The notes below the pieces were generated by a model. The model made no database searches, was not told the DNA's origin, and saw nothing but the letters and a program-made list of their open reading frames with translations. A DNA stretch of 64,000 nt, taken from positions 11,140,704 through 11,204,703 of the forward strand of contig NC_057727.1 in NCBI RefSeq assembly GCF_004010195.1. Direction: 5' to 3'. The DNA comes from Chiloscyllium plagiosum. Taxonomy: Eukaryota. Made by a program: the position numbers and the translations under genes. This document shows positions 922 through 52,156 of the stretch, in pieces (positions within the stretch are counted from its first letter, which is position 1; each line of letters opens with the position of its first letter).

Positions 922-976
922 GGTACTGCTCCTCGGGTGCTGCCTGAGCTGCTGTGCTTTTCCAGCACCACTCTAC
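922..976 (+). mobile_element. Truncated PLE family-1 fragment with 15-bp TSD
   Basis: ctgctcctcgggtgctgcctgagctgctgtgcttttccagcaccactct is flanked by tatagactgactcta at 907-921 and 977-991. Confidence 0.7.
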
Positions 977-1245: not shown

Positions 1246-1274
1246 CTGATGAAAGAGCAGCGCTTCGAAAGCTT
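1246..1274 (+). ncRNA. Minimal hammerhead-ribozyme-like motif (PLE family 2)
   Basis: tac-CTGATGA-a-agagc agc gcttc-GAAA-gctt-gta: core boxes, imperfect stem II, AGCU palindrome, CUU triplet and a short stem I (tac/gta). Confidence 0.55.
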
Positions 1275-1816: not shown

Positions 1817-2030
1817 ATGGATGCGCCGTCTTGGGATCTCGGGCTGTTCTCATTCTTGCTGGAGCGTCTCCTCTCCTTCTGCAGCGAGTTCGCTCAGGAC
1901 TGGAGCAGCAACGACATGAGGGTGACCATCTTCAAGATCCTACTGGGCTGGCTGCTGGGCAGCTTGGTGGCTATCCACATGGCCTGGAAGTTTTATGGGG
2001 CGACAGTCAATGACATGTACTACAGGCAAG
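1817..2030 (+). CDS. TCTA: T-cell leukemia translocation-altered protein, coding exon 1
   Basis: MDAPSW...SEFAQDWSSNDMRVTIFKILLGWLLGSLVAIHMAWKFYGATVNDMYYRQG matches the recalled TCTA family pattern (human [23 protein letters not shown]...AWGFYGNTV). Good Kozak context gcgATGG; donor GT at 2031, phase 1. Confidence 0.93.
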
Positions 2031-2259
2031 GTGTGTGTGTGTGTGTCGGGGGACGGTGTGCGGCGGCTGTTGTTGTTGGGAGTGTGTAGGGTGGGGATTC
2101 ACTCGAATTTTACACTTCCCTAGTCCGTGTTGTTGATATCAAGTTACTACTGCTAATTAAAGCTTCTGTACGATTTGGGCATCTCACGCTAATATCTGTG
2201 TCTCGCCAACGTTTTTGTAAATTATAATTGTGGTTAACGACCTAGATATTTTGTATGAT

Positions 2260-2662
2260 GTCGTTTGAGGGATAGATATTATCCAGGATACCAGGAATCA
2301 CTTGAGTTTCCAAGACTTTGGACTTGAAATATTAGCTCTGTTTCTCCCCTCCATAGATGCTACTGGATTCGAGCTTTCTTTTTTTTGTTTCAACTCTTCA
2401 GCATGAGCAATGCTTTACTTTTAATAACTGGGATAAATCATTTGCACTTCTTTGAAATAGTGCCAAAGATCTTTTATATTTGCCTGAACAAATAGATGGG
2501 ACCTGGGTTCATCTGAAAGATGGTATTTCTGGCAGTTGCCTGCTTCCTCTACTGCAGTGGAGTGTCAGTCTTGTTTTTTTTAATGTGCTGAACCCCTAGT
2601 TTGGGACTTTGTCCCAACACCTTGTAGTCTGGAGGTGAGTGCTTCCAACTGAGCCACAGCTA
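2260..2662 (-). mobile_element. Old tRNA-headed Deu-domain SINE (SacSINE1/AmnSINE-like), interrupted by a degenerate PLE-derived fragment (~2310-2425)
   Basis: Minus strand reads agctgtggctcagttggaagcactcacctc (tRNA A-box head) followed by a Deu-like tttcagatgaa...aaaagatc..tggcactatttcaaagaag. Confidence 0.5.
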
Positions 2663-2769
2663 GCACTGTAGCCCAGAAGTTGTTCACTTGGAAGGGCAGA
2701 TGACTTGAAACATTGAGAAAACAAATTGCTTAAAGTTTTGTGTTGCTGCTCACATAAAATCAGATAATT

Positions 2770-3078
2770 ATGCCAAGAGGCTATTCAGCCCATTGAGTCT
2801 GCACCAACTCGCTGAAGAACTCATCCCAACCAAACCCAGCACCCGAGCTATCCCTACTATTACCATGGCTAATCCACATAGCCTGCACGTGGATGAGTTG
2901 GACCGAAAGTTTGTTTCCGTGCTGTACATATTTGGACTGTGGAAGAAAACCGGAGTACCTGGCAGAGACCCATCCAGACACACGGAGAATGTAGAAACTC
3001 TACTCAGTTACTCAAGGCTGGAATCACACCCGGGTCCCTGGTGCTGTGAGGCATCAGTGCTAACCACTGAGCTGCCTG
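2770..3078 (-). mobile_element. HE1-type V-SINE
   Basis: Reverse complement of the tRNA head (gctcagtggttagcactgatgcctcacagcaccagggacccgggt) plus V-domain, similar to 12628-12945. Confidence 0.8.
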
Positions 3079-3794
3079 TGTGAACTCATTGTGAATTCTT
3101 GTCTTCATCTTTACCATTTTCACCAACAGTGGTTTCCTGTGCAATTGAAGGCTTTTTCTAAAAGTAAAAAGTCAATATTCTGTAACCTCTGTTCTCCTGC
3201 CCCAAAACTGAAGATGCTGACAGTCCCAAGAACATTGGTAATCAAGGAAGTGGTCACCTCTCACAAACACTTTGGGTAATAATTGCAGGTAATTTAAATG
3301 AACTTTTTTTTTGTCAGAACCAGGAATGTCAAGAACAGTAACTTGTCCCAGCCTTCTGCATAATAGCTAAAGCCAACTTTTGTCTCTTCTCAGATTCAGT
3401 AACATTTGTCTGTAATATTTTGCTAGCTGAGTTCAGCTAACTCTCTGTGAAGTTTGATATCCAAGCATGATATTTTTCTTTCCATGGTTCCATTGTTGAG
3501 CAGGTGCACTGATGTGTTTTACTCGTATGAAGTTGCTGACCAATTAATATTCCCTTTGCTTTAAGTTTATTTGAAGGTCAAGGCCATGTCCTGCAGGGAA
3601 AACGGTGTGTGAAGTATTCTCTAAATGGCCTCTCTGATCAGATTTTGGCTTGAACTCTACATTCCTACCTGTTCCCTTTAACCGTCGATTTCCCCTATGG
3701 TTCAGAATTATGTTTATCTCAACATTGAATGTCTTCAGTGACTCACCCTCTGTTCCCTGCAGAAGAGAATCCTAATCCTCTCTGAAACAACAAA

Positions 3795-4104
3795 TACAGT
3801 GGCTCAGTGGTTAACACTGCTGTCTCACAGCACCAAGGTCCCAGGTTCGATTCCAGCTTCAGGTGACTGTCAGTGTGGAGTTTGCACATTCTCCCCGTGT
3901 CTGCGTGGGTTTCCTCCAGGTGCTCCAGTTTCCTCCCACAGTCCAAAGATGTGCAGGTCAGGTGAATTAGCCATGTTAAATTGCCCATAGTGTTCAGTGC
4001 ATTATTCAGAGGGAAATGGGTCTGGGTGGTTTACTCGTCGGAGAGTCAGTGTGGACTTGTTGGGTCGAAGGGCCTGTTTCCACACTGTTGGGAATCTAAT
4101 CTAA
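3795..4104 (+). mobile_element. HE1-type V-SINE inserted into an old minus-strand CR1 fragment (~3580-4900)
   Basis: tRNA head, V-domain gtggagtttgcacattctccccgtgtctgcgtgggtttcctcc, LINE-derived tail gaagggcctgtttccacactg and (atcta)n. Confidence 0.88.
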
Positions 4105-4463
4105 ATTCTTCCATTTTCTCCTCCTCCCCCATGTTCTAGGTCCTCCCATGAGGGAAAACAGCCTGATCCCCTGACATGCGCTCTCATAATTTATGTTGTA
4201 AATTTTATCATTCTTCTGAATTACGATGAGAATGGGCTTACCATGCTCACATTTTTTTGAAAAGACTCCCTTCATCCCTATAATCAACTTTCTCTGACTG
4301 TCACCAATGCAATACATCCCTCCTTTAAATATGGAATCAAAACTATACATAGTACTTCAGGAGTGTTTTGTGCAACTTTCCGAGCAAAGACTTTGCAGTT
4401 TTAATGCTCCAATTCAGCTTGCAAAGAAGGCCACTATTCCATTTGTCTTCGTTGCTAGATGAT

Positions 4464-4777
4464 GACCTAGTGGTAGTATCGCTGGCTTGTTAAATCAGAG
4501 ACTCGGGTAATGTTCTGGGGACCTGGGTTCAAATCTGCTATGCCAGGTGATGAATTCCATAAAGAATCTGGAATTAAGAGACTGATGATTGTTGGAAAAA
4601 CTCACTTGGTTCACTAATGTCCTTCCGGGAGGGAAACTGTCTTCCTCACTTGGTCTGGCCTCTGTGTGACTCCCAACCCACAGCAATGTGGTTGACTCTT
4701 AACTACACTCTGGACAATTAGGAATGGGCAATAAATACTAGCCTAGCTAATGATGTCCTCATTCAATAAATGAATAC
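4464..4777 (+). mobile_element. tRNA-derived SINE with LINE-type tail (LF-SINE-like shark family)
   Basis: Head ctagtggtagtatcgctgg...gggttcaaatc, core ggttcactaatgtccttc..gggaaa...cccacagcaatgtggttgactcttaac and tail atgggcaataaata. Related pieces at ~14975-15160 and ~41000-41260 (-). Confidence 0.6.
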
Positions 4778-5056
4778 AGTAAAATACTTGCTGTATCTGC
4801 ATGCTAGCATTTTGTCTCATGTCTCATGTAAGGATCCCTCTGGACTGGAGCATTCTGTCTATCAATTGTAAAAAATATTTTACTTCACCAACTTGCCTAT
4901 CAGAGTGGATAACCTTTTTCCAGACTTTGCTTTTTTGCTCATGGTAATAATGCAGAACTTGTCACTTTTACAGATCTGTTTTATAATTTAGTTCCTAACT
5001 TCTCATTTTTTTCAACAGCCTCTTTTTTTTCTCCTCAGTGTTATTGATATGTATGT

Positions 5057-5120
5057 GGACCATAATAACCTGATCTTTCCTCTTCTATGGACCATAATAA
5101 CCTGATCTTTCCTCTTCTAT
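5057..5120. repeat. Perfect 32-bp tandem duplication
   Basis: ggaccataataacctgatctttcctcttctat occurs twice (5057-5088, 5089-5120). Confidence 0.95.
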
Positions 5121-5459
5121 TTCAAATTCCTCTCCGCTCAGACTAGATGCTCTTAATATTAGTACCAGACAAGCAGTGTGGTCTTGGCTACCGACAGTCA
5201 GTTGCAGAAAACAGTATCTGTCCCACTATAACCACACTATCCATAACCACTACTACAATCACCTTTACACCCTGCATCTCTCAAATGGCTTCTAGTCTTT
5301 TGTTTCCTCCCTGCCATCACTGCTGTTGCCCTATAGGCTAAAAATAAATATTTGTTCTTGTAAATCCAACTTAATTGAGCAACTGTTTGTTTGGTTATAT
5401 GTTCAGGATGGTCCATAACACCAAATTGTTTTTGGAATTATTTTACAGATAAAATATAT

Positions 5460-7735
5460 AGATTTTAAAAGACATCTGGATGGGTACATGAATAGGAAGG
5501 ATTTAGAGGAATATGGGCTAAGTACTGGCTAGAATCAGGGAGAGTTCCCAGAGGACTGGAAAATTGCTAACATGACACTCCCTGTTCAAAAATGGAAGAA
5601 GGCAAAAGACAGACAATTACAGACCAATTAGCCTAACTTCTGTCATGGTAAGATCCTGGAATCCATTGTGAAGCATGAGATTTCTAAATATTTGGAAGTA
5701 TATGGTAAAATAGGGCAAAGTCAGCATGGTTTCATCAAGGGGAGGTCATGTCTGACAAATCTACTAAAATTCTTTGAGGAGACCACTTTTGGAATAATGC
5801 ATGCAATTCTGGTCTCCTTCCTATTGGAAGGATGCTGTGAAACTTGAAAGGGTTCTGAAAATATTAACAAGGACATTGCCAAGGTTGGAGGGTTTGAGCA
5901 ATATGGAGAGGTTGAATAGGCTGGGGCTGTTTTCCCTGGAGCATCAGAGGCTGAGGGGTGACCTTATAGAAGTTTATAAAATCATGAGGGGCATGGACAG
6001 GGTAAATAGACAAGGTCTTTTCCATAGGGTGGGAGAGTTCAGAACTAGAGGGCATAGTTTAGAGTGAGAGGGGAAAGATAGGTAAGTTAGGTAAAGGGGC
6101 AGTACAAAGAGATCTGGGTGTTCTTGTACACCAGACAATGAAGGCAAGCATGCAGGTACAGCAGGTAGTGAAGAAAGCTAATAGCATGCTGGCCTTCATA
6201 ACTAGAGGGATTGAGTATAGAAGCAAAGAGGTTCTTCTGCAGCTGTACAGGGCCCTGGTGAGACCGCACCTGGAATATTGTGTGCAGTTCTGGTCTCCAA
6301 ATTTGAGGAAAGACATTCTGGCTATTGAGGGAGTGCAGCGTAGGTTCACGAGGTCAATTCCTGGAATGGCGGGACTATCATGTTGAAAGATTGGAGCGAC
6401 TCTGCTTGTATACCCTTGAGTTTAGAAGACTGAGAGGGGATCTGATTGAGACGTATAAGATTATTAAATGTCTGGACACTCTGGAGGCAGGAAACATATT
6501 TCCACTGATGAGTGAGTGCCAAACCAGAGGACACAGCTTAAAAATAAGGGGTAGACCATTTAGGACAGAGATGAGGAGAAACTTCTTCACCCAGAGAGTG
6601 GTGGGTGTGTGGAATGCTCTGCCCCAGAAGGCAGTGGAGGCCCAGTCTCTGGATTCGTTTAAGAAAGAGTTGGTTAGAGCTCTCAAGGACAGTGGAATCA
6701 AGGGTTATGGAGATAAGGCAGGAACAGGATACTGATTGAGGATGATCAGCCATGATCATAATGAATGGTAGTGCAGGCTCGAAGGGCAGAATGGCCTACT
6801 CCTGCACCTATTGTCTATTGATATAAAAGAGACCTCGGGGCAATTCTTTTTATGCAGGGGATGGTGCGTGAGTGGAATGGGCTGCCAGAGGAAGTGGTGG
6901 AGGCTGGTACAATTGCAATATTTAAGAGGCATCTGGATGGATATATGAATAGGAAGGGTTTGGAGGGATATGGGCCAGGTGCTGGCAGGTGCGTCTAGAT
7001 TAGGTTGGGATATCTGGTCATCATGGATGAGTTGGACCGAAGGGTCTGTTTCCATGCTGTACACCTCTGCGACTCTAAGTAATGAACAGGTTAAACCAAG
7101 GAGAACCAATGGATGTTACATCCCTGGACTTAAAAAAACAAACAAAGGCCTTTGAAAAGGCTCCGCAGAGGAGGCTGCTGAGTAAGGTAAGGGCTCACGG
7201 TGTTAGAGGCAAAGTGCTAGCATGGATAGAAGCTTGGCTGTCTGGCAGAGAGTGGGGATGAAAGGGCCCTTCTTAGGGTGGGGTGACAAGTGGTGTTCCA
7301 CGAGGCTTAGTGTTGGGATCACAACGTTTCACTTTATACATTAACAATCTAAATGAAGGTACTGAGGGCATTCTAAGTTTGCAGACGATACAAAGATAGA
7401 TAAGAGGACAGGTAGCACTGAGGAGATAGAGAGGCTGCAGAAGGATTTGGACAGCTTTGGAGAGTGGGCAAAGAAGTAGAGAGTAGAAGTAGGCAAAGAT
7501 AGAGTACAATGTGGGAAAATAAGAGGTTATACACTTGGGTAAGAAGAATAGAGGCATGGACTATTTTCTAAATGGGGAGAAAGTTCAGAAGTCTGAACTA
7601 TTTGTACAAAGAGACTTGGGAATTCTAATCCTGGATTCTCTCAAAGTAAACTCACAGGTTGAGCCAGTAGTTAGTAGGGGGCAAATGCAGTGATGGCATT
7701 TACTTTGATAGGACTTGAATATAAAAACAGGCATA
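5460..7735 (+). mobile_element. Mosaic of nested CR1-clade (HER1-like) LINE fragments
   Basis: ORFs 5801-6067, 6138-6386 and 6325-6735 encode CR1 RT C-terminal motifs (LYRALVRPHLEYCVQFWSP, RRLRGDLIETYKI, TRGHSLK, FFTQRVV..WN.LP). One copy (~6078-6820) interrupts another (5780-6077 resumes at ~6821). Confidence 0.9.
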
Positions 7736-7990
7736 TACTCTCTCCTGTGAGCTCTCTCTCTCCCCCGCCCAGAACCCTTCAGCTAGTGAATGTAATTTCA
7801 AGAAGAATGTTCTCTCACACTTATTCTCTCTCGCTCGCTCTTTGATAGGACTTGAATATAAAAACAGGCATATACTCTCTCCTGTGAGCTCTGTCTCTCC
7901 CCACCCCCACCCTCCCCCCGAACCCTTCAGCCAGTGAATGTAATTTCAAGAAGGATGTTCACTCTGTCGCTCGCTCTGTCGCTCTCGCGC
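7704..7990. repeat. ~137-bp imperfect tandem duplication ending in (tc)/(tcgc) microsatellite
   Basis: tttgataggacttgaatataaaaacaggcatatactctctcctgtgagctct...gaacccttcagc.agtgaatgtaatttcaagaag starts at both 7704 and 7841. Confidence 0.9.
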
Positions 7991-8111
7991 GCGCTAACTC
8001 ATTCCCCTCACCCCGGTCGAGTGCTTTCCTGCATCTCCTTAGCAGATGTAAGGCTACCAACTTTCTGCGGGGACAAAGCAGGAGAACGAGGTTCAGAAAC
8101 TTATCGGCCAT

Positions 8112-9425
8112 GGAGTCATAGAGATGTACAGCATGGAAACAGACCCTTCGGTCCAACCTGTCCATGCCGACCAGATCCCAACCCAATCTAGTCCTGCCTG
8201 CCAGCACCCGGCCCATATCCCTCCAAACCCTTCCTATTCATATACCCATCCACATGCCTCTTAAATGTTGCAATTGTACCAGCCTCCACCACATCATCTG
8301 GTAGCTCATTCCAAACACGTACCACCCTCTGTGTGAAAACGTTGCACCTTTGGTCTCTTTTATATCTTTCCCCTCTCACCCTAAACCCATGCCCTCTAGT
8401 TCTGGATTCCCCGATCCCAGGGAAAAGACTTTGTCTATTTATCCTATCCATGCCCCTCATAATTTTGTTAACCTGTATAAGGTCACCCCTCAGCCTCCGA
8501 CGCTCCAGGGAAACAGCCCCAGGCCTATTCAGCCTCTCCCTATAGCTCAAATCCTCCAACTCTGACAANNNNNNNNNNNNNNNNNNNNNNNNNNNNNNNN
8601 NNNNNNNNNNNNNNNNNNNNNNNNNNNNNNNNNNNNNNNNNNNNNNNNNNNNNNNNNNNNNNNNNNNNNNNNNNNNNNNNNNNNNNNNNNNNNNNNNNNN
8701 NNNNNNNNNNNNNNNNNNNNNNNNNNNNNNNNNNNNNNNNNNNNNNNNNNNNNNNNNNNNNNNNNNNNNNNNNNNNNNNNNNNNNNNNNNNNNNNNNNNN
8801 NNNNNNNNNNNNNNNNNNNNNNNNNNNNNNNNNNNNNNNNNNNNNNNNNNNNNNNNNNNNNNNNNNNNNNNNNNNNNNNNNNNNNNNNNNNNNNNNNNNN
8901 NNNNNNNNNNNNNNNNNNNNNNNNNNNNNNNNNNNNNNNNNNNNNNNNNNNNNNNNNNNNNNNNNNNNNNNNNNNNNNNNNNNNNNNNNNNNNNNNNNGT
9001 TCTGTATCCAAATGGCTAGTTCTCCCTGTATTCCATGAGATCTAACCTTGCTAATCAGTCTCCCATGGGGAACCTTGTCGAACGCCTTACTGAAGTCCAT
9101 ATTGATCACATCTATGCTCTGCCCTCATCAATCGTCTTTGTTACTTCTTCAAAAAACTCAATCAAGTTTGTGAGACATGATTTCCCACGCACAAAGCCAT
9201 GTTGACTGTCCCTAATCAGTCCTTGCCTTTCCAAATACATGTACCTCCTGTCCCTCAGGATTCCCTCCAACAACTTGCCCACCACCGAGATCAGACTCAC
9301 CGGTCAATAGATCCCTGGCTTGTCTTTACCGCCCTTCTTAAACAGTGGCACCACATTAGCCAACCTCCAGTCTTCCGGCAACTCACCTGTGGCTATCGAT
9401 GATACAAATATCTCAGCAAGAGGCC
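8112..9425 (-). mobile_element. Relatively young CR1/HER1-like LINE 3' portion spanning an assembly gap
   Basis: ORFs 9112-9300 (QHGFVRGKSCLTNLIEFFEEV), 8540-9109 (MDFSKAFDKVPH) and 8188-8568; 3' tail gaagggtctgtttccatgctgtacatctctatgactc. Confidence 0.9.
8569..8998. other. Assembly gap (N run)
   Basis: Run of N. Confidence 1.
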
Positions 9426-9684
9426 CTAATTGAATGGTAGAGCAGACTCGATGGGCTGAATGGCCTAATTTCTGCTCCTATGTTCTGTGGTCAAATTGGA
9501 CTGGATTAATTTAGGATATCTGGCTGGCATAGATGAGTTGGACCGAAGGGTCTGTTTCCATGATGTACAACTCGATGACTCTATAAATAGAGCAACCATT
9601 TTGAACTGAGCAGGATCCGATAAATGGCACTCAAATAAAAGCGAAATATTGCAGATACTAGGATTCTGAAATAAAAACTAAAGT

Positions 9685-10250
9685 AAGTATGTAAGTTAGC
9701 TTACTGAGCTGTAAGGTTTGTTTTCAGACGTTTTGTCACCATGACTTGGTAACATAACCAGTGAGAGTCTCCGGTGAAGCGCTGGTGGTATGCCTTGCCT
9801 CTATAGGTCTTGGTTTCTTAAGGTGGGTGATGTCATTTCTGTTTTTTTTTCAAGGCAATGTAGAAAGGGACTAAGTCGCTGTGTTTATTGATGGAGTGCT
9901 GGTTAGAATGCCATACCTCTAAGAATTCTTGTGCGTGTCTTTGTTTCGCCTGTCCCAGGATGTGTGTGTTGTCCCAGTCAAAGTGATGTCCTTCTTTGTC
10001 TGCATGTATGGAAACTAGTGATAGTACGTCGTGTCTTTTGGTGACCAGTTGGTGTTCGTGTATCCTGGTGGTAAGTTTCCTGTGTGTCTGATGTAGTGGG
10101 TTGTTTTTTACAGCTCTGCATGGTACTTTGTAAATGATGTTAGTTTTGCTGATAGTATCTAATCGATCCTTTAGGTTTATTCGTTGCTGTTTAATTGTGT
10201 TGGTAGGTTTGTGGGCTACCATGATACCAAGGGGTCTGAGTAGTCTGGAA
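9685..10250 (-). mobile_element. Penelope-like element family 3, 3' part with GIY-YIG endonuclease remnant
   Basis: ORF 9833-10288: KPTNTIKQ...KD......KTNIIYKVPC...RKLTTRIHEH...H...GHHFDWDNTHIL...FLEVW. Degenerate hammerhead core at 9725-9763 (-). Confidence 0.8.
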
Positions 10251-10379
10251 CAGAAACAAAGCCCAACAAGCAGGCACAGCGCAACCAAAATCTATAGCCA
10301 CATTACTTTACATCAAAGACATATCAGAAATGACTTCGAGACTACTCAGACCTGAGTTAAAATCTTCTCAAAAACTGAT

Positions 10380-10590
10380 AAAAACAATGTGTAGGAGAAC
10401 TTCAGGTCTGGCAGCATCTATGGAGAGAGAACGAGAGAGTTAACATTTCAAATCCAGTGTGACTCTTCTTTGGAATGGCCATAATCTCACACTGGACTCC
10501 ATTATAACTTTGTTTCTCTTTCCAAATATGCTGTCAGGCCTGCTCAAGTTCCCTAGCACTTGGGTCACTTTTGGCAATACAAACAGAGAA
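10380..10590. mobile_element. Old inverted-pair PLE-derived element
   Basis: caggtctggcagcatctatggagagagaac...gttaacatttcaaatccagtgtga is inverted relative to tcacactggactcc..ataactttgtttctctttccaaatatgctgtcaggcctg. Confidence 0.5.
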
Positions 10591-12382
10591 GGGGTGACCA
10601 GGTGTTGGTGTAGGTGTTGTTGAGGTTGACTGAGACTCCAGAAGAATTTCTGCTCCTTGAAAAGTGTGCCAACACTTGAATGGGACTGTTGATTTAATGT
10701 GTAATCTGAAAGACAACTAACTTTTCAGCTGTACACTGATAGTCAGCTGTATTAGATCCACAGGTCATGATGTACTGCTTGGATTTACAACTTTCTGGCA
10801 GTAGCAGTAATAGATATAAAGTAAATTAACACATCGGTCAGCTGGTCGCTTTCAGGATCTCTCCTATCATTCACATAATGCAATCAGAAATAAAAATGTG
10901 TAGTTGCCAATTTTCACCTTTCAAATGTGATATTTTGTGAATTGGCTACAATTATGGACAATGTAGTTTTAACGGAGAGAAAAAAATGTTAGGAGGAGTC
11001 CTGACTACTACTATGCATATGCCAAGTGACTGATGTCTAGGTAGCACTGTGTATTTGAGCCAGATTGTCTCGCCTTTTCACTTACTGAATAAATTGTAGA
11101 AAAAAATTTTTGATATATTCAAATAAATGTCAAAACAATTTCTCAACCTGCTTAGGAACATTTAATTAAATGTTCAGCAAATCTCCATCTACCCTCTGAC
11201 TCATTTTGGCTCTGTAATTAAACCATCTATACCAAGGTCATCTCCAGGGAAACAGTAGAAGATCTTGCATTAGCTTCAGTTGAGAGAGATTGATTAAAGT
11301 TGACTGTCGTTTTCTTCCCAAGTTGTTTTCCAATGACCCAGTCCTGCAAAGTGGATTAGTGTGGAATATGAATTGGAGGTTGACAGCTGAAAAATGTTGA
11401 ACTTACTGACTTTTAATAACAGCTTTTAAGAAAAATGAAAGGATGAACTTGAATATCTAAATATGGATATTTTTTAGATCTTTTTTAATAGTCTAAATAG
11501 TGCCTTTGGAATGGTATCTCAGGCTGAAGTTTGCCAGGAAATCATGAGATGGGTAAGAAATGGGCCTGGAAAGAGGATAGAATTTACTGTAATTCATTTT
11601 AGTTGAATTCAGAAAGCATGATGGCATTTTGGTTTTAGTTTAGTTTCCATGAGGGAAAAAGAATGATTGTGACTTTAACTTTTGTAAAGCTGCAAGATGA
11701 GAGCAGTATTTAAGATCTTCTAAAGATTTGAAGGACAAAGGAACACATTAAAGACAGCTGCTTTTTTGAACTGAGAAGAGAGAGAGAAACATATTTGAGA
11801 TTTAAAATCTGCCATTTTCATATTTCCAAGGAGACTGAACCAGAAGTGGTTCAAAGAAGACTTTGATGAAAAATTAGTCCTTCAGTCACTGGAAGAATAG
11901 AGTTTTTACTTGAACTACTTGAGGCAAGATAGTTACTTTTTGGCAACTTTCTGTGCATTAATCTGACATTGGTTGAAACATGAAACAAATTCAAACTTGG
12001 AGTCATGTGGAAAAGCTGACAGATTCTAAAAAAAATTATTTTAAAAAGTCATGAGATGTATGGGTATGTAGGTAAGGGAAAACTGTTTCTCTTGGTATAA
12101 AGATCAAGAGCAAGAGAGTGCAAGTTTAAGGTAACTGGCAAAAGAAGCAATGGCAATATGTGCAACAAGTGGTTGAGATTTCAAAGTTACTCATTCATTG
12201 GATGTGGGCATTGTTGGCTAGGCCAGCATTTATGGCCTCTCCTTAGTTGCCGTTAAGGTGCTGGTGAATTGCCTCTTTGAACATCTGTCCATTTGCTGTA
12301 GGTATACACAACAAATGTGGAGGAAAGATGGGGGATGGATAGATAGTGATGATTATTATATAGGGAAAATAGATACATTATA

Positions 12383-12555
12383 ATACAGACGGTCTGTGGG
12401 TTGCGAACGGGTTCTGTGCACAAGTCAGAACACAGTCCAGACAGTATAAAACAGCCGTTCATAAGTACAGATGGTTGTATTTTGGATATTTAAAATTACA
12501 TCCTTGTATAGGATTACATTTATAAGTTGAATGTCTGTAAACTGGTGATCCATAC
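12383..12555. mobile_element. Possible degenerate Tigger/pogo-like MITE
   Basis: TIR-like ends tacagacggtctgtgggttgcgaac ... gtctgtaaactggtgatccata, recognised by resemblance only. Confidence 0.35.
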
Positions 12556-12627
12556 TTAATACAGCTCTCATTAGTGATGCTGTTACGAAATTTTTGTGGT
12601 TGCCTCTGCCTTTTGAAACAAAATCAA

Positions 12628-12945
12628 GGCGGCACGGTGGCACAGTGGTTAGCACTGCTGCCTCACAGCGCCAGAGACCCGGGTTCAATTCCCGCCTCAG
12701 GCGACTGGCTGTGTGGAGTTTCCACATTCTCCCCGTGTCTGCGTGGGTTTCCTCCGGGTGCTCCGGTTTCCTCCCACAGTCCAAAAATGTGCAGGGTCAG
12801 GTGAATTGTCCACGCTAAATTGCCCGTAGTGTTAGGTAAGGGGTAAATGTAGGGGTATGGGTGGGTTTCGCTTCGGCGGGTCGGTGTGGACTTGTTGGGC
12901 CGAAGGGCCTGTTTCCACACTGTAATCTAATCTAATCTAATCTAA
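12628..12945 (+). mobile_element. Full-length young HE1-type V-SINE
   Basis: ggcggcacggtggcacagtggttagcactgctgcctcacagcgccagagacccgggttcaattccc (A and B boxes), V-domain, CR1-derived tail, (taatc)n end; CpGs intact. Confidence 0.92.
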
Positions 12946-13510
12946 AAAGTACATTTGAACAGAAATAGCTGAAGCAAAATTTGTTTGTGATTGGGTGTAT
13001 CAGAATAGGGGTGATGCGTTTATGTAATATAAGGTTGAAATCAGGACACACTTTCCCAGCAAGTCTATAACAGAAATCCAAAACGTGTTTCTTTCCTCAC
13101 CCCCCCTCATCTCTCCAAATGAAAGGCTGGGGCTGCTAAGCCAATCATTGCTTTTGAGACTGAGATGTATAGGATTTTTTTTGTGTAAGGGTATTGAAGG
13201 ATATGGATCAAAAGCAAGGTAAATGCTGCTGCAGGTACAGATTGATCATAATTTATGGAATGGCAGAACAGACTTCAGGGACTGGTCTCATGATATGTGA
13301 CAAAGTAATTATTTGTAAAGCGGTTTGGAACATTGAGGATTTTGAGAGGCAGGTTTGTACATTCATTTTTGTTTTCTTGTCTGCATTATTTCTAATATCA
13401 ATATCGGACTCTCTGCCTTATTCTAAACAAACTGACTGACTGAAATTCATTGCCAAGACATTTGGAATGTATAATGTAAGTTAAATTTTCACTTTCCTTA
13501 TCAAGATGTC

Positions 13511-13820
13511 ATAGAATCCCTACAATGTCAAAACAGGCCATTTGGCCCAGCCAGTCCACACCGACCCTCCAAAGAGTATCCCACCCAGACTCAATCCCCT
13601 ATCCTATTAATGCATCTAACCTACACATCCCTGAATACTATGGGCAATTTGGCATGGCCAGTTCATCTAACCTGCATATCTTTTGGATTGTGGGAGGAAA
13701 CACAAGCACCCGGAGGAAACGCATGCAGACATGGAGAGAATGTGTAAACTCCATACACACTCGTCCGAGGCTAGGATCGAACCTGGGTCCCTGGTGCTAT
13801 GAGGCAGCAGTGCTAACCAT
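13511..13820 (-). mobile_element. HE1-type V-SINE
   Basis: Reverse-complement similarity to 12628-12945. Confidence 0.85.
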
Positions 13821-13984
13821 AAAACAAATCATTGAACTTGTTTGAGGTGGTGCAGTGTAAGTGAGGTTCAAAGAATTGTGACACGGGGACTGGACAGTTG
13901 TACAGTCATTTTTTTTTTTCAAGTTATTTTTAATTAAACCAAAAATGTCCACAAACTATTAAGGATCCCGTGCAGAATATGATA

Positions 13985-14330
13985 ACTTTGAGCCTGTCAC
14001 AGCAAAGTAGCCCAGAGCAGTTTTTGAGCTCAGGACCGAGACTGAGGCTCCAGAACACTGCAGGTGGTGTCTCATAATTTCTCTGCTGGTGATTCAAGCT
14101 GGTCTGTAAAATATCCTATAGCATTATTTGAGCAGAAAGTTGTCTCAAGCAACCATTACCAATCTAAAGCATAAACTAATCATTCATCTCATGATTATTT
14201 CTAAGTGAGGCAGAATGACATCTTTGTTATCAGTTTGTTGATCACTGTCTGAAGCAAGTTGTTGTTTTTAAGTAGAAAACATCATTAAAATTTTATCAGA
14301 ACTTTGATATGTGTTACATCTCTGAAATGT
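13985..14330 (+). mobile_element. Highly degenerate Deu-domain SINE
   Basis: gtaaaatatcctatagcattatttgagcagaaag...tcattcatctc... resembles the Deu core seen at 2260-2662. Confidence 0.35.
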
Positions 14331-15308
14331 GCTCATGCCAATTTGTGTATCAATGTTTTTCATTTATATTATGCCTTTAAGATACAAAGTGTCCCATTAC
14401 ACTTTAGAAATTTCAACCAGAAAATGGGTGCCAAGCCAAAGAAGAAGCTCTTACGGAAAGTGCTGAAAAACTTATGGTCTGGGTTTGAGAGTAAGAGAGT
14501 GAAATTTCTAGTCAGCTGAAGGCATGGCCAATAAAAGTGGGGAAAAGTTAGGATAAGCATTCAGGGTGATAAGAGGAATGGAATTAATGTTCATCGAATG
14601 TAAATTGTGGATTATTCAAGACTGAATATCAAATGAGCAGTTGACAGTACAGATGCCATAGAGATCAAGACATGTGGAAGAGAAGTGGAGGTGGATATTG
14701 TCAAAGTACATGGGAGCTGATACCATGCTTATAGATGGTGTCACTGAGCACTGATAGGGAGATGCTCAAGTTTAGATCCTTAGAAGCTGTGGAGCTAAAT
14801 CTTTTTGAGGTATAGTTTAATTCTATTTTGACATTCTTGTTTACAATGCAGTTTACAAGTCCTTATGGCACAGAAGAGGTCATTTGCCCATTAAGCCCAA
14901 GTTATATGTCTCTAGTGCAATCCAGTGAGTCACATTCTCTTTTATACCTTACAGTTTATTGCCCTTGAATATCCATCTGGCTCAGTAATGTGCTTTAGGA
15001 AAGGAAATCTACCATCCTTACTCTGATAGCTTATGCGTAGCTCCAGACCCATAGCAATATTTCTGACTCTGAAACGGCCCAGCAAATTATTCAGTTGAAG
15101 AGAGATGCGCAGTGAATGCGACCCTTACAGGTGATGTCCTGTTCCTGCGAATGATTTTTTTTCTTTCAGAAGAAAATATTTTCCTGAGAAGAAAAAAGTT
15201 GTCAGAGATTTCTAGGGCTGCACAGTGCATTCCAGCTGTTAAAAAATACAAATTGTGATTTTTCGTCTGTGGTGGAACAAGCTATTTGACTTTGAGCTTA
15301 TTTTACAG

Positions 15309-15363
15309 GTATTGGAGGTCAGAATGGAGGTACTCCAGACAGCTCTTCAAACTTTACCAGTTG
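15309..15363 (+). CDS. TCTA: TCTA coding exon 2
   Basis: ttttacAG|gt att gga ggt cag aat gga ggt act cca gac... = (G)IGGQNGGTPDSSSNFTS(W), vs human GLGGQNGSTPDGSTHFPSW. Donor GTatgt at 15364; 55 nt; phases fit. Confidence 0.93.
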
Positions 15364-15774: not shown

Positions 15775-16870
15775 AGTAGTAGAAGTCAGAGGATCATGGT
15801 AGATGGCCGTTTGTGTGACTAAAGACTGGTGTCCAATGGCATACCACAGACATTGGTGCTGGGTCCTTTATTGTTTATGAATATTTTCCATGTTATTTAT
15901 ATGTAATGTGGGCAGGAGGATGATAAGTAAGCTTGCTAATGACACAAAGATTGGCTGGATTGTTTACTGAGAGGAAGAAGGTCTTAGGTGAAAGGAGGAC
16001 ATAGATGGATTGGTCAGACGGGCAGATCAGTGGCAAATGGAATTTAACCTTCAGTGTAGACAGAATAAGGATGTACTCAGTGAATGGCAGGATGCTAGGA
16101 AGCGATCTTGGGGTCCTTGTCCACAGATCCCTGAGGTAAAAACAATGACTGCAGGTGCTGGAAACCAGATTCTGGATTAATGGTGCTGGAAGAGCACAGC
16201 AGTTCAGGCAGCATCCGAGGAGCAGTAAAATCGACGTTTCGGGCACAGATCCCTGAAGGCAGCAGGACAAGTTAATCGGGTGGTTAAGGTGGCTTACGAG
16301 ATACTTGCCTTTATCCATTGTGACAAAAATTATACGAGCAGGGAGGTTATTTTGGAGCTGTACAGGACTTTGGTTAGGCCATGGCTGGAGCACTGTGCAC
16401 ATTTTATGAGGAAATGGGGGGAGTGCAAAGGAGGTTCACCAGGATGTTGCCTGGATGGAGTAGTTTAGTTAAGAGAGGCAGGATAAGCTGAGGTTTTCTT
16501 TATAACAGAAGGCTGAGGGGAGACCTGATTGTGGGGCATGGACAAGTTGGATAAAAACCAGCTGATCCCCGAGTTGAAGGGTCAATAAAAAGGGGATATA
16601 ATTTTAAGGTGGAAAGGCCAGAGTTTTAGAAGGAATTGGTCGAAATGTTGCCCAGAGGTTAGTGGGAATCTGGGGGATGCATAGCTTGGAGGGTAGTTGA
16701 GGCAGAAAACCTCAACCTTTTAAAAAGTATTTTTAGCCCTTGTAGTATCATAACATTTGAAAGGAGTGGGCCAAGTGCTTGAAAGTGGGAGCAATGTAAA
16801 TTTAGAATAGTTTTTTTGGTGCAGACTTGATGGTCCAAAGAGCCTCTCTACTTTATAATTCTATGAACCG
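15775..16870 (+). mobile_element. Degenerate CR1 LINE fragment
   Basis: Decayed GVPQG-like and KFA.DTK-like regions; LYRTLVRP.LEHC motif; 3' tail. Confidence 0.8.
16135..16243 (-). mobile_element. PLE family-1 3'-terminal fragment with 13-bp TSD
   Basis: Near-identical to 52031-52139; flanked by cacagatccctga at 16122-16134 and 16244-16256. Confidence 0.85.
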
Positions 16871-17333: not shown

Positions 17334-17376
17334 GGACAATGCCAGTGGCGAGTCAATTAAAAGTCACAGGGAGTGA
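17334..17376 (+). CDS. TCTA: TCTA coding exon 3 (to stop)
   Basis: tttctacAG|g gac aat gcc agt ggc gag tca att aaa agt cac agg gag TGA = (W)DNASGESIKSHRE*, vs human WEMAANEPLKTHRE*. Spliced CDS is 312 nt = 103 aa. Confidence 0.92.
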
Positions 17377-20300
17377 GTGATGAAGATGTGTGAAACCTGC
17401 AGCTGAGACATGAGGTGGCTTGCTGTGTGGAGTAAAGTTATTGAGACTGTGGAATGTTCAAACTGCTGTTGGGTGCTAAATTCTACAAAATATTGTATGT
17501 TGCGCCTGATGACTTGAAATGTGCCATTGTGACTCAGTGCCGTTATTTTATTTTTCTTTCCTAATATTCTTAGGCTTTGCTGAGAATCCAGGGAAGTATA
17601 TGTTGGCACAAGTCAATTGAAAGGTACCAGCAATGAAAATGTTGATTATTTAAATGTGTTGTGCTAACGCAACTCCCCAGGATTTTGAATAGTGCTATAA
17701 AATGGATCTTATCCGTAGGAGATGAAAAGAAACAATATGATTCTATTTGGAAAGATTAAAATCAAGTAGTGATGGGTGTCATTTGATGAGCCCAGAAGTG
17801 GATTATCAAAGAACTAACAAGGTTTTCGTAGCAATGACATGATGTTCTGCAGCAGTTTGTTGAGGATATACTAATTTGAATTGGGTAACATCAGGGAAAA
17901 CAGATCCTTCTGGTAAAATGTCTACATGCCAATCTATAAATTGTTTTCATGTTGATCCCAAAGTGCAATGCGATCGTTTTGTAGACCCAAAAGAGGCATT
18001 GGTAGGAATTAAAACAGACCAGTTTGAGTTTGCTTTTGTTTTGTCCTCTGTATGCATGCAAATAATGGCAGAACCCAAGCTGATTTGTGTATAGACATGG
18101 CCAAAACAGTTCTCTGCAGCATTATCAATGATGAGAATGGGATGACCTCTGAAGGAGCTAAATAAAGTGAAGTATTAATATCTGAGGCAATTGCTCAATC
18201 TTCCTGTGAACACATATCATTAATTCTTCATGCTGGGAACGCCTTTTGGCAACTGTATGTCCTGCAGGAAGTTAATGACCTGTAACCTGTTGAGGACCTA
18301 TAACAGCTGATTTCAATTTAAGTCTTTCAATTGGTGAGAAACTGAGGACCTTATTACCAATATCCAGTAAAATAATTATTGGGTGGCATGATTCTGGTAT
18401 GCCTGTATGATGTTCTATGTTAGAATGGTGAGCTCATGTCAGTAACTTGGCCTACATAGTATAATTCTAATCTTGATTTTGCTGTTGGGAAAAATATTTT
18501 TCAGGAGAAACTTTCAAATGATGGTACCCTGTCTCTCACATGAAATATTCATGACACCTTGCTTATAGTGTATCTTGTGTACTCATTTGCCTGACTGAAC
18601 CAACTTTTCAGGCATGCTGTAAAGTGAGAGCCCAGAACGGCTGAGAGGCTGTTCATCCATTCGAATCAGGATTCCATACCTGTTGTAAAACCCAGATTTT
18701 AACTTTTAAAAGAATACTGGGTGGACCTCCCAGAGCATGCAAGTACTTTTTGACTATACCTTAAGAGGCCTCATTGATTCTCTATAAAGGGATGCCCTTT
18801 CTGGAAATGTTATTTTTTTTAAAATTCAGAAAAGCAGGAGTGCTTAACTGGCTTACAATAATGATGTAGCCCGCTACGGACCCATTTCCTGAACTGTGTA
18901 AGCCAACATACTGACAAGCTTTACTTGCCAGCTGCATGGTTTTTCACCATGGAAAACTAGTAAACTGAACTGAACCCTCTGGTACCCCCAATTTAGCTAC
19001 CGAATGTTACTGAGACCCACATTAGGGCATGGTTTGTTTCCCAACAACCATGTTAGGTGCACACTGCATGAGCAGAACCAGTATTCGTACTGTTGACTGT
19101 CACATTGCTTTTCTACAGGGAGGTAAAGCATTACCTTGGCTTTGTCAAAGGTGTTGGTTTGGATAAGTCCTTGGTTCAGCTCACCCTGTTCCACAAAGCT
19201 TAACTAACACACTTCAATCTGCTGACTGGATTATCGTGCACTTACTACTCGCTTTAACATTATGTGAATGAAATAGACTTTACATACATAATGTCTAAGA
19301 AACCTGAAATGCTAAAGTCCACAATGTACCACAGAAAAATCAACTCTAAGTGGAAAGTCAGGACAAGAACCCATAATTTAAGTTAACTTTCCATCTTAAG
19401 AAATCAGTAGGAAGTTATAGTGAAGGACATTGTCATAGCAGAAATAGATACATAATGGTAGACTCTTCATCTCCATTAATCTTGATTTTTATGTCTCTAT
19501 TTAAATTCCAAATAAATCACAAGTTGCCATTTAGTTTTCTATATTTTGGCAATCTGTCTCCATGTTTTCTTTTGCCAGGCCTCAAAACTATTGGGAATAG
19601 TGATGCAATGTTATGTAACAATATAGAAACATGGTTACCTTGCACAGAATGAATATTTAAGTCCATGCAATCTGCCAGCTGGAGTGAAGTGATATTGTAT
19701 CTTTAGTTGCTGTCATGATACATTGTGTAATTTCAAAGCAAAAATTCTTGAAGGAAAATTTTATTTTGCCGTCCATACAAAGACCATCTAAGTTGAGAGC
19801 AACTCATGAAGTGTATGCCAAGCAATTTACCTTTGTTTTTCAACAGTGTACCAAAAGAAGGACTGAAGTTTAAGATGTAAACAGGCATCTTCTGTTTGTA
19901 TATTGCTTAAAAATCTCCAGGAGCAAACAGAACCATAAGTACATTTCTAATTTTGATGTTTTAGATTCTACTTGCATTTTTATTATTCTATGTTCTTTTC
20001 AGTTAGAATCACTTTGTTTCACTGGACTTAAGTTTACAAGATAGTATTGCATTCATGAAAATAAATCATTAACTATTTATTCCTTATTCAGTAAGTGGTG
20101 GGGTTGATTATTCTGACATAATATATAGCTGGTTTTGAGGTTGAGGTACGTGAAGAGAGAGAGAGTATGTAATGAGAGTTTTTTGTCAAAAAGTTAGTTC
20201 TACAAATTTGATTTATTTGTTCTATCCAAACCTAAAGCTGAGGATTCTCTTCTCTGCTGTGTAAACTTGAGCTCTGAGGAGCACAGCCCATTTCGTTGTA

Positions 20301-22810
20301 TGATGAATTACATGGGTGCATTGACAAATTTTTTTCCTTGAGTAAAAGGCCATTAGTATCCTTGAATAGTTGTGCTTAGAGCCAGCTTTCAATAAAATGT
20401 AAGGGTTGTGTTTGAGTTCAAAAGATAATTGGTGACATGATAGTACAATAAATCTTACTTCTGAAAATTTGTTAATGACAAGTGAGTATAATTAAGCTTT
20501 TTTTTACTGTATCAGGAGTGATCCGAATTCAAAATATGGTGGAATGAAAGAGATTACATATTTTAATCCAATTTAAGTGTTCATCTACACACACAAACAC
20601 ACCAAATTATGTTGGGTTGAATTGGACATTTTATTAATTAGACCATTCAGCTCAGAACAGAAAACTACAACTCCCCAGGTTAGCAGTGTAGTTGAGCAGT
20701 TACTCTGGGTTGGAGTCATATGTTGGCCCCACTACAGAGACTACAGTCCAGAGTCTGCTGATTCTCACACCTTAAGCCAATTCTCCGTCCAACGTACCTG
20801 ATGTTACAATTTTAGTCAGCATTGTGTCAGATATTGTCTATGTTAAAAGACATGGATTCTGTATCACTGACTGTGTTCATGATAGAAAAAAATCAGCAAA
20901 AGACACACCCTTGTCTTTCTATGTCATAGTAATGGAATGTGATGGAAGAAGAGTTTTGTTTTGTTAAATAGTCATATGAAGCTATTCAGTTTTCTTCTCT
21001 AAACCCTTTTTAAAAAATTGTTTGTAATTTGTTTCATGCTTTTTTCCCTCCCTGAAACAGATGGCCTTTAGCACTTGTACTTTGCTTGATTGAGCTTGTT
21101 GAATGTTCGTCCTCACATAAATAAAAGTTGGGTGATGGTTGTGATATTCTCTCACACCATGTTTTGTACTGATCTTACTTGTAATGAATTTCTCTCACTT
21201 ATATTTTCCTATGATTTCCTAGTACAATCCCCTATCCCAGTGCCCCAGCCCAAGAGGGTCAATTATATAATACCATCACTGAGCATGCGGACTGAGGTTT
21301 TTTTTGGATTCCAAGGCTCAGTATCACAATATTATGTATTTATATTTTCTTGATGCAGGAAAGCCTCACATAGCTGCTTCGATTCATTTTCTTTCCCTTT
21401 TAAAGTTCCTTTTAGATGTTCAGTGTAACAACAAGTGCAAGGAGAAAGGTGTTTGAGACTTCTAATGAAGCCTCCATTAACTGAATGCTAGTGTGCATGC
21501 AGTCCAGGGAGACTGATTCTTATTTATTTCTCTATTTCTCTGTCTCTCTACTCTGAAAGGAAGTGCTTGGCCTCTGCTTGTCAATATTGTTTGCAGTAGC
21601 AACAAGATTAGTCACTCAATACTTGCATGTATTCTGTGATTTGCGACCATGTTGCATACGTTTCTTGGGTGTTTTCTTTCCCCCACTGGCAATACTTAAA
21701 TGCTTCAGTAAATGTTGCTGATAGAAATGGTTGAAATAAATCCAAAAGTAAATGTTCTTTTTTTTAAGACAAGTAGCCATATTTTTCAGTTTTATGCAGA
21801 ACGTTTACATGAATACAAGGATAATTTATTTGTTTACTGGTCCCCTTTGAACTGCGGCATTGATACACCATTGCTATGTTACACTTTAAAAAATAAAAGA
21901 GGAACTTTGGATTTAGACAGCAGTTTGCCAAGAGTTAGTCTCAAATCTCTAGAGTCCCTGGAATAATTGTACTGAAGTAATTTATACTCTACTGAAATGC
22001 ATTTTTCTAATATAAATATTTTGTATATATACAGTAGATTTTGTAAATCACTGTAATCCTTAAATTGGATAATCTTTGTAAACATATGCCCCTAAAGTTG
22101 ATTAACTTCTATTTATGTTGAAAATGTAAAGGTTTCCTGACTGCTGTACATCAGAAAAACTGCTATATGTGTGTATGTATATATGTATATTTATCCTTAA
22201 TTTTGTTTTGGGAGGGACGGTACTAGATAGTTTTTAATTGTATAAAAGGAGTTGCAGAAACAAAACTTGACTGTTTGTACTTTATTCTTTCGCTGAAGAT
22301 CATTTGAAGGTTACTTCTTGTACTAATTACTAAAGTGCAAAATTTCTCAACTTCCAAAATTCTAACCACCTGGCACTAAAGAGGATTTGAGTTTCTAGCT
22401 CCTTCAGTGATTTAATCATATGTTTCTGAGGCTTGCTGCACTGGATGCAAGCTGTGTAGTAGGTCTGGCTGAATCGGAGAGCTGTAGTACATTGTGTCAC
22501 TGCTTGTTTATTGAACACAACTAATTTTAAAAAACAAGAAATTGGGTCCAGTGGAAGAAGGAGCTAAGAATCTTTGGAGAGCAAAATGACACTGTAGCAG
22601 GAGGGAATTTCTTTTATCACTTAATCTCTTTATGAGCTATTTTGAACTTGGTTGAGCATGAAATACTTTTGTTTTTAAAGTCACAGAGTGTTATCTCATT
22701 GTAAAGTTATATAAGCCTTACAATTGATATTTGTTTTATTGAGATTTGCACAAATGCAAAAATACTGTCAATTTTGCTTTTTCTAATTTACTCAGGTGGC
22801 TGATTGGATG

Positions 22811-22972
22811 AAAAGTCAGAGTGTGGTGCTGGAAAAAGCCTCATTCCTGATGAAGGGCTAATGCCCGAAACGTCGACTCTCCTGCTGCTCGGATGCTGCC
22901 TGACTGGCTGTGTTTTTCCAGCATCAAACTCTTTGACTCAGATCTCCAGCATCTGCAGTCCTCACTTTCTCC
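22811..22972 (+). mobile_element. Non-autonomous PLE family-1 fragment with a short inverted 5' piece
   Basis: agtcagagtgtggtgctggaaaaa (22814-22837) is inverted to tttttccagcatcaaactctttgact. Ends gatctccagcatctgcagtcctcactttctcc; approximate TSD attggat(g/a)aaa on both sides. Confidence 0.75.
22847..22874 (+). ncRNA. Minimal hammerhead-ribozyme motif, intact core (PLE family 1)
   Basis: CTGATGA-A-GGGC-TAAT-GCCC-GAAA-C-GTC: both conserved boxes, perfect 4-bp stem II, ACGU palindrome and GUC cleavage triplet. Confidence 0.65.
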
Positions 22973-24189
22973 TTATTGGATAAAAGGCCATTCATCTGAA
23001 ACTTTGCAACTCTGTGCACAGCTGCTTTGAGTTCTTCACCTGTTTTATTCTGGTTGACTCTTTCTTCACACAGTTTTCCCCAACCTCTTGTAAGGTGTTT
23101 GATTCAAGGGAGCTCACCAGCATCTTGTCTAAGTAATCAATCTTCATCAGACTCTTGGTCTACCAGGTGAAACTGTTCTGAAGCCCATCTCTGACAGGCA
23201 ATGGAGGTGACTTGCCAGTAAGTCCTAGAAGCTTATCACTATGCACTGTGTGCTAGGTTCTAATGATGGATGGTACAGGTCACTGACTGTTTGTTTGCAA
23301 CTGGACTGATCCTACAGACTAGTGATTCTCCTGTAGCTTGAGTGAAGTGGTATATGTATAGGTAGAGCTTTGAAACAACCAGGAGCAGAAAATGATATTG
23401 GCGACTGTGTGTAGACTCCCAAACTTTAGTGGTACTGCTGGATGCAATGGACCAGACCAAACCCCCCTCTTAATATATTTAGAAGTTAGCCTAGACCGTA
23501 ACATTTTCTTATTTTGCATCTAGCATTGCATTTCTAGATGCATTTTGATGGTCAAGCTACTTGACTTTAAGCAAAATGTTATTTTTACACCACAGGTAAA
23601 ATACAGACAAACTGAAAATAAAGAATTGGTTGACTGTCAAAGTGCTCAACAAAATAATACATTAATTACTACTGATGAACTGTTCCAATATTATAGTAAC
23701 ATTCCATAAACACACACTTAGGCAAATTCAGTAAAAAAGATTGTCTCATATGCAATTTTAGCAGCAGGAAGAGAACTCCAGAAAGAGAATTAAGAGCTTC
23801 CATATCCAGCTTCAAGACCCCAGGACCTGCTGAAAGCCACAAGGTCATAGTTCTGTGGAAGCTTGATCCCACCCATTCAGGCTGCTTCAATTATTCCTAC
23901 TTAAGAAAATAAAACAAGGCCTCACAAGCTGTTTGTTGGCATTTAACAGACCATTTGATACCCCTCTCAATCTTCCTTGATTTTTTTTTTAAAACACAGG
24001 ATAAAATCTCTAAAAGCCATTGTATTGTCACCTGGGGAAATTGGAAATTAGAGGCACAAGCAATAAGAGTACAGCTGAGTTCTGAGCAAACTTAATTTAT
24101 ATTTAAATTGGGCAAATAAAACCAGTAACAATATTGTTGAGGAGAATTTCTTGAAATGTGTATGGCATGGTTTTCTGCATCAATATATT

Positions 24190-35459: not shown

Positions 35460-35565
35460 TCCACCATCACCACTTCACCTGACAAAGGGACCAGGCTTCA
35501 AAAGCTTGTCATTTTAAATCAACCGATTGGACTATAACCTGGCACTGTGTAACTTCTGACTTTGA
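35460..35565 (+). mobile_element. PLE family-2 3'-end fragment with degenerate hammerhead core
   Basis: cacctgacaaagggaccaggcttcaaaagcttgt...ttggactataacctgg resembles 1243-1310. Confidence 0.6.
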
Positions 35566-52128: not shown

Positions 52129-52156
52129 GACGTTTCGGGCAAAAGCACTTCATCAG
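52129..52156 (-). ncRNA. Minimal hammerhead-ribozyme motif in the PLE 3' terminal region
   Basis: Minus strand: CTGATGA A GTGC TTTT GCCC GAAA CGTC (one stem II mismatch). Confidence 0.6.

Follow-up and report, generated by a model that had tools for sequence, protein, structure and literature searches.

We identified minimal type I hammerhead ribozymes (min-HHRs) dispersed in a 64-kb stretch of the Chiloscyllium plagiosum genome, the whole of which we call the window. Our account of them, which we hold to be very probable, is that they derive from the pseudo-LTRs (pLTRs) of three to four families of Penelope-like elements (PLEs), and that the scattered copies are likely inert leftovers of insertion. 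The only intact copy of the window, a family 1 min-HHR at 22847..22874(+), likely lies in the long tail (3' UTR) of the TCTA mRNA. It reads CTGATGA-A-GGGC-TAAT-GCCC-GAAA-CGTC, that is, a C3-A9 box, an extra A, a 4-bp stem II, G12-A15.1 and a loopless ACGU palindrome, with the predicted cut after C17 (22874). Among the eleven motifs listed in a preliminary description it alone combines both boxes, stem II, the palindrome, NUH and two helix I pairs. All eleven proved real, each interval holding the motif claimed for it on the strand given. The count itself was too low: a search with profiles built from real copies, which give 0 matches on reversed sequence, added five remnants and brought the total to 16.

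The other ten listed copies are damaged by decay, each failing at least one feature, and the losses in the non-intact window copies (G12, G8, palindrome, stem pairs) are mostly CpG decay. G12 has become A in the copies at 521, 710, 35479 and 49068 and in the family 3 copy, which additionally lacks A6 and G8; the palindrome is disrupted at 521, 710, 48895, 49790 and 50649, and stem II carries a mismatch in the copies at 1246, 49790, 52156 and 49068. Near the left end of the window, the family 1 copy at 521-548(+) forms a head-to-head pair (460..640) with an inverted partner at 460-514(-), both decayed. This partner remnant had been overlooked, as had the family 1 remnants at 426-466(-) and 924..975(+), the latter consisting only of the part downstream of the ribozyme. 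Two family 2 hammerheads lie close by, one decayed at 683..710(-) and one at 1246..1274(+) in which the 10.1-11.1 pair is broken. The remaining overlooked copies are a decayed fourth-family hammerhead at 10387..10474(-) and a family 1 remnant at 16176..16247(-), which begins within stem II and is antisense in TCTA intron 2. Farther along, the family 2 hammerhead at 35479..35507(+) has lost G8 and G12 and is antisense in an intron of what we take to be the glycerate kinase gene (gene names in the window apart from TCTA are presumed from Pfam families and synteny). The family 1 hammerhead at 48868..48895(-) retains an intact core with palindrome and helix I broken, the family 2 hammerhead at 49068..49096(+) has lost G12, and the family 1 hammerhead at 50649..50673(+) carries a deletion that leaves G8-A9 and stem II vying for the same bases. 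Apart from 22847, the window copies lie upstream of TCTA, in TCTA or glycerate kinase introns, or, as is likely, in the first introns that flank the CpG island near 51 kb on both sides.

Taken alone, the window's strict motif count is only marginally above chance (3, against a mean of 0.43 and a maximum of 3 in 200 local shuffles); it is their repetition across the genome that decides that the motifs are real. Patterns requiring both boxes, stem II, the palindrome and NUH matched the 3.56-Gb genome exactly 94,687 times for family 1, 23,982 times for family 2 and 5,126 times for family 3, amounting to about 124,000 intact-pattern copies, and the reversed patterns of the same three families had 0 matches each genome-wide. 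A perfect-core descriptor gave 30 matches in 381 kb of unselected genome versus 0, 1 and 1 in three shuffles. The Rfam scan of the window returned no hammerhead family among its 10 matches up to E 5, which is expected because the motif has no stem III. In 73 unselected stretches of 10 kb (703,109 called bases) we counted 180 copies, or 256/Mb, from which roughly 0.9 million remnants can be extrapolated genome-wide. At the same threshold the window holds 15 copies (240/Mb); since its density equals the background, we see no link to housekeeping genes, near which a special spread of the motif had been proposed. The fourth family, which is older and has a 5-bp stem II, makes up about one fifth of all remnants in unselected sequence (32/180); besides 10387-10474(-), it occurs at L017, L085 and L147.

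Stem II was claimed to pair despite its family-specific sequence, and so it does. We anchored 188 distinct copies by nothing but their core (126, 31, 25 and 6 from families 1 to 4). In these, pairs 10.2, 10.3 and 10.4 are formed in 181, 177 and 173, exceeding the maxima of 144, 130 and 117 over 300 partner shuffles; in helix I, the first pair is formed in 160 and the second in 172 (shuffle maxima 138 and 124). The counts stand for three to four lineages rather than 188 events, and paired stems had served as seeds for the profiles that gathered the copies. The 10.1-11.1 pair is G-C or G-U in 174/188, and the third pair of helix I, a U.U in most of family 1, is paired in 73/188 overall. An extra nucleotide sits between 9 and 10.1, A in families 1 and 2 and U in family 3. 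The palindrome co-varies as proposed (ACGU versus AGCU): positions 15.2/16.2 are CG in families 1 and 3 and flip to GC in family 2, where 27 of the 31 copies have GC. CG is found in 14/25 copies of family 3 and in 74/126 of family 1, of which 47 more show the CpG-decay forms TG or CA. The claim that several PLE lineages have retained the ribozyme is upheld for at least three, with different stems and a co-varying loopless palindrome.

The proposed identity as PLE minimal type I hammerheads also stands, as families 1-3 sit behind GIY-YIG frames. The motif is located at the 3' pLTR ends of PLEs, with RT and/or GIY-YIG linked to it in each of these families. In two window copies, and likewise in 28 of the 195 that were fetched, the family 1 hammerhead lies 290-350 nt behind GIY-YIG, and its frames bear DKG, YIDD (RVT_1, E 5e-8) and a Cx4CxxC linker, seen in the window at 50133-50477 and at L168. 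In family 2 the spacing is about 750 nt, and the preceding 480-aa frame contains YIDD, a Cys linker (L250) and YIGET; its RVT_1 match (E 7e-6) is weaker than Pfam's cut-off. The family 3 hammerhead lies 70-80 nt behind an endonuclease frame without Cys linker; in the frame of L254 the GIY-YIG match has E 0.015, below Pfam's cut-off, and no Cys linker was found in the 115 aa preceding YVGQT. The fourth family is behind a GIY-YIG match at one locus only (L085). The criteria of Craig et al. (2021, PMC8557442) place families 1 and 2 with the Neptune/Nematis type and family 3 with the Poseidon type, an assignment from frame features and linker that does not separate Neptune from Nematis.

Three such elements can be recognized in the window. 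A 5'-truncated family 1 PLE at 52030..53860(-) contains RT pieces, an assembly gap and GIY-YIG (52455-52685), with its pLTR hammerhead, mismatched in stem II, at 52129-52156(-). A family 1 3' fragment at 49666..50480(-) retains the Cx4CxxC linker, a decayed GIY-YIG and a decayed hammerhead at 49763-49790(-). A family 3 (Poseidon-type) remnant at 9680..10352(-) retains an endonuclease (9836-10291) and a decayed hammerhead, for which the interval 9725-9763(-) had been given; the motif is present there, with C3 at 9761, two bases inside that end. A Pfam search of several decayed PLE pieces found no match. The RT piece at 53291-53548 has 100% protein identity to G000:C12:3513120-3513377, as would be expected of a young copy or of a duplication. 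In family 2 elements (L064 900-1180; L063) a long degenerate (CA)n tract lies between the endonuclease stop and the hammerhead, and AATAAA lies about 9 nt past the predicted cut.

The ends of the copies are informative as to how the short ones arise. For the analysis of starts we could anchor 101 out of 108 unselected family 1 hits: 42 start 0-12 nt ahead of C3, 21 within the first 21 nt of the ribozyme, 8 at most 6 nt from the cut site (2 exactly at it) and 3 farther down, while 27 extend farther up; an inverted partner is present in 47. The 3' ends, called in 97 copies, fall at +90-104 in 40 and at +125-144 in 45. Among 23 head-to-head pairs both ends were called in 17, and 16 of these combine one long and one short end. 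Tandem arrays were not seen: none of 135 core-bearing copies has a same-family, same-strand neighbour within 300 nt (17 have one within 3 kb), and the profile search found no tandem hammerhead units within the window. Genome-wide, 1,014 pattern matches begin at the cut site, 985 two bases downstream and 221 two bases upstream; the three patterns set different demands on flank and CpG, and the corrected counts are about 3,400, 2,600 and 1,400, forming a step rather than a spike and confounded by microhomology. The first 30 matches at the cut site comprised 5 mutated whole copies, 6 with unique flanks and 19 that adjoin an inverted partner, 7 of these 19 through a GA overlap equal to helix I. 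Six head-to-head family 1 pairs (L209, L213, L214, L226, L227, L235) contain one copy that starts exactly at the predicted cut and is joined to its partner through two helix I-forming bases; such joints could reflect either cut RNA or microhomology joining.

We infer that the short copies are for the most part cDNAs whose priming took place at either of two internal sites, some 95 and some 130 nt downstream of C3, on a template of uncut RNA that was copied to its 5' end 0-12 nt ahead of the ribozyme; the position of this 5' end of the PLE RNA comes from DNA junctions only. The products would often be head-to-head pairs with a tail on one side only, and the short derivatives, previously regarded as spreading units, look just as PLE insertions ordinarily do. 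In source elements that are active and in tandem, two ribozymes would co-fold via the 4-nt palindrome and helix I, perhaps aided by the element's protein, and the motif would be conserved between families because of this co-folding. The dimeric folding read from the palindrome would accordingly concern source elements only, and does not extend to the scattered core-bearing copies, 0 of 135 having a same-family, same-strand neighbour within 300 nt.

Once inserted, copies decay, and the scattered ones, including 22847, are likely inert. Fully intact are 17 of 82 unselected family 1 copies with a recognisable core, and 5 of 26 in the divergence class of 22847. The catalytic G12, the general base, decays like a neutral CpG (G12>A in 15/82 family 1 copies versus 14/80 for the G of a flank CpG). 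Non-CpG core substitutions number 31, versus 53.8 expected from base-matched flank (P 0.0005). Flank subfamily differences and the selecting of recognisable cores probably account for the fewer core changes; weak selection on genomic copies is also possible.

The intact copy had been placed in an intron or promoter flank; transcript contigs put it instead in the spliced last exon of TCTA. The gene (PF15128, E 2e-30) has coding exons 1 (1817-2030) and 2 (15309-15363) on the forward strand (1817..15363) and a last exon at 17334..22882(+) with the stop at 17374-17376, followed by a 3' UTR that runs at least into the element. A single 5,950-nt contig of run X1 bears the exon 2-3 joint and extends to 22882; run X2 has the same joint, and its contigs tile the region. 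That both runs represent RNA rests on this joint and on an intron depth of about 0.2-3.6 in repeat-free bins versus 15-24 in the exon, and the contigs are unstranded. The 3' UTR measures at least 5.5 kb (17334 to at least 22882) and is nearly repeat-free up to the element; coverage is continuous to 30000, and near 23-26 kb the UTR may meet or overlap a long 3' UTR belonging to the convergent glycerate kinase gene.

The insertion itself spans 165 bp (22810-22974) and is flanked by a 7-bp target duplication, ATTGGAT, at 22803..22809 and 22975..22981. It consists of an inverted 27-nt pLTR piece at 22810..22836(-), corresponding to about +66 to +92 and representing a short untailed end, and a direct pLTR fragment at 22837..22974(+), which runs from 10 nt before C3 to about 127 nt after it and ends in the long, tailed 3' end, 100 nt past the ribozyme. 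The copy would have inserted into what became, or already was, the TCTA 3' UTR, and it is transcribed. The inverted piece is predicted to pair with 22912-22938 and to enclose the ribozyme. Helix I has only 2 bp followed by U.C and 1 bp, and the preferred predicted fold pairs U4-G8 with the palindrome and the cut site, an inactive arrangement. A two-site dimer of 22847 was calculated to lie 13.7 kcal/mol above two free monomers, compared with 1.1-7.3 for three other intact copies, in energies that omit tertiary contacts and protein. The profile search found no other same-strand copy within the TCTA unit. Transcript contigs carry the copy uncut, and since it lacks a partner, has a broken helix I and prefers an inactive fold, it is predicted to remain so. 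The depth of locus-identical pieces (99% likeness) over the cut site is flat in X1 (17.9, 19, 17.7) and reads 20.8, 13.9, 16.1, 10.2 and 24.5 in X2, as steady-state contigs that cannot reveal cleavage products. Past the element, depth is lower in X1 (10.2) and X2 (14.2) than upstream (17.9 and 20.8), and not reduced in X3 (8.8 to 9.8); run X19 gave no locus-specific reads at 22401-22800 (99% likeness).

The neighbourhood holds several other features. A let-7 family precursor at 58815-58903(+) (Rfam, 63 bits) lies downstream of exon 1 of a WD40 gene, presumably WDR82-like, and is probably intronic. The CpG island at 50900-51600 apparently serves this gene (+), and seems to serve also a putative untranslated first exon of the glycerate kinase gene (-), the first coding exon of which has its acceptor at about 42580. 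From human synteny near TCTA, a head-to-head Rho gene and a miR-135-like sequence would be expected; searches of the window and of 20 kb upstream with short motifs found neither. LINE reverse transcriptase remnants, which we take to be CR1/L2-like, are present at 5464-9586, 35676-36593 and 58046-58379, and the assembly gaps (8569-8998, 47789-48288, 52687-53272) lie inside or beside repeats.

Could the RNA over 22847 be the antisense tail of the convergent glycerate kinase gene, the ribozyme strand being absent from mature RNA? The contigs are unstranded, coverage runs on to 30,000 and rises toward the glycerate kinase gene, and minus-strand poly(A) signals are present at 22507, 22735 and 23044. 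However, the contig that enters the element bears the TCTA splice joint. The 22001-22500 bin, which adjoins an A-rich tract at about 22520, is reached by stranded raw reads of TCTA polarity, although these are very few (mean depth 0.5). On the forward strand no AATAAA or ATTAAA occurs between 21892 and 23617, from where the next signals follow. We regard the antisense origin as unlikely. Far less credible is that 22847 has been co-opted as a ribozyme of the TCTA 3' UTR, cutting the mRNA when PLE protein or another hammerhead transcript is supplied in trans. Of the 16 window copies it alone is intact, and no other lies in sense in a spliced exon, those in TCTA introns (three) being antisense and damaged; its ribozyme sequence is identical in X1 and X2, under two organism codes; RNA of the family is plentiful, with a depth on shared words that sums to >10,000; and a lizard PLE hammerhead cuts solely with PLE protein (Frangieh et al., 2024, PMC11167929). 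Yet about one copy in five is intact by chance (the 17/82 and 5/26 given above), the 2-bp helix I, the favoured inactive fold and the dimer cost of 13.7 kcal/mol are predicted to disfavour cleavage, depth shows no dip at the cut site, and X1 and X2, at about 99.8% likeness to the window, are uninformative on deep conservation. The broader idea, that the roughly 124,000 intact min-HHRs, some of them in sense in host mRNAs as in the TCTA 3' UTR, might be latent half-ribozymes switched on in trans by PLE protein or RNA and so couple transposon activity to host mRNA cleavage, strikes us as a very long shot.

The short copies might also be read as a self-propagating non-autonomous family, retrozyme- or SINE-like, freed by ribozyme cleavage. 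They are very numerous and mostly short (74/101 start 12 nt or less before C3), and a pLTR origin has been proposed for non-LTR retrozymes, of which one chondrichthyan is reported to have some (bioRxiv 10.64898/2026.07.22.740005). Against this, there are no tandem arrays (0/135 within 300 nt), starts cluster ahead of the ribozyme and not at the cut (42 versus 2 of 101), the length of the inverted partner differs from copy to copy, and the 3' ends are common to short copies and long ORF-bearing ones. We think such a family improbable and retain the reading of the short copies as ordinary PLE insertion products.

Earlier publications cover the motif, its association with PLEs and the dimer model, and what is new at this locus is only the place of the intact copy in a spliced last exon. 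Min-HHRs were described in the pLTRs of metazoan PLEs by Cervera and De la Peña (2014, PMC4209133), in whose assays the monomer did not cut and dimers cut weakly. The copies described here share with theirs the type I layout, the extra base between 9 and 10.1, G10.1-C11.1, the palindromic 15.2-16.2 without loop 3 and a short helix I, as well as the occurrence of several families per genome, mostly as single dispersed copies of truncated PLEs, and of close pairs on opposite strands. As against those min-HHRs, family 1 has a 4-bp stem II and a 2-bp helix I, and the number of copies differs: about 124,000 with an intact pattern, in contrast to about 4,000 in coelacanth and about 9,000 in Xenopus. 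A known motif is hereby extended to a genome with at least 10 times more copies than the genomes of the defining paper, in whose text, as far as covered, and supplementary file 2 we found no cartilaginous fish. We found no published account of shark PLE hammerheads, nor one of a PLE hammerhead that has been domesticated; these families may be listed in Repbase, subscription papers or bioRxiv supplements, which lay outside our search.

With the EN+ PLE clades Neptune/Nematis and Penelope/Poseidon (Craig et al., 2021, PMC8557442), our elements share an RT with DKG (family 1) and YIDD, a C-terminal GIY-YIG, the CX2-5CxxC linker in families 1 and 2 and its absence in family 3, 5' truncation, the inverted 5' copy and a 30-40 bp tail at one end, a likeness drawn from fragments. 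Non-LTR retrozymes (bioRxiv 10.64898/2026.07.22.740005; PMC7229834) likewise have pLTR-related sequence with a type I hammerhead; unlike the copies here, which are single or head-to-head, they form tandem arrays with a ribozyme per unit. We rejected identity with such arrays, as 0/135 copies have same-strand partners within 300 nt and none occurs in the window.

The hammerhead in the 3' UTR of rodent Clec2 is reportedly a complete, active ribozyme. The 22847 copy resembles it as a hammerhead motif within a vertebrate 3' UTR (PMC6155905), but lacks stem III and is predicted to be inactive alone. Whether such motifs matter in host mRNAs can be asked concretely of the TCTA copy, for which the evidence here points to a probable no.

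Closest to the insertion model is the Poseidon element PAc of Anolis carolinensis (Frangieh et al., 2024, PMC11167929), for which two internal RT starts were found in vitro, uncut RNA was the main template and cleavage was protein-assisted. Our model agrees with these results and with PMC4209133. Common to PAc and the copies here are two 3' ends about 35-40 nt apart, copies with the whole uncut ribozyme and a target duplication starting with ATT (here at 22803), whereas the evidence there is from Poseidon in vitro and here from genomic junctions of a linker-bearing family. These junctions constitute a large natural record of PLE insertion ends, in agreement with that one in vitro study on two priming sites and an uncut template, and offer a cheap test of what PLE hammerheads do.
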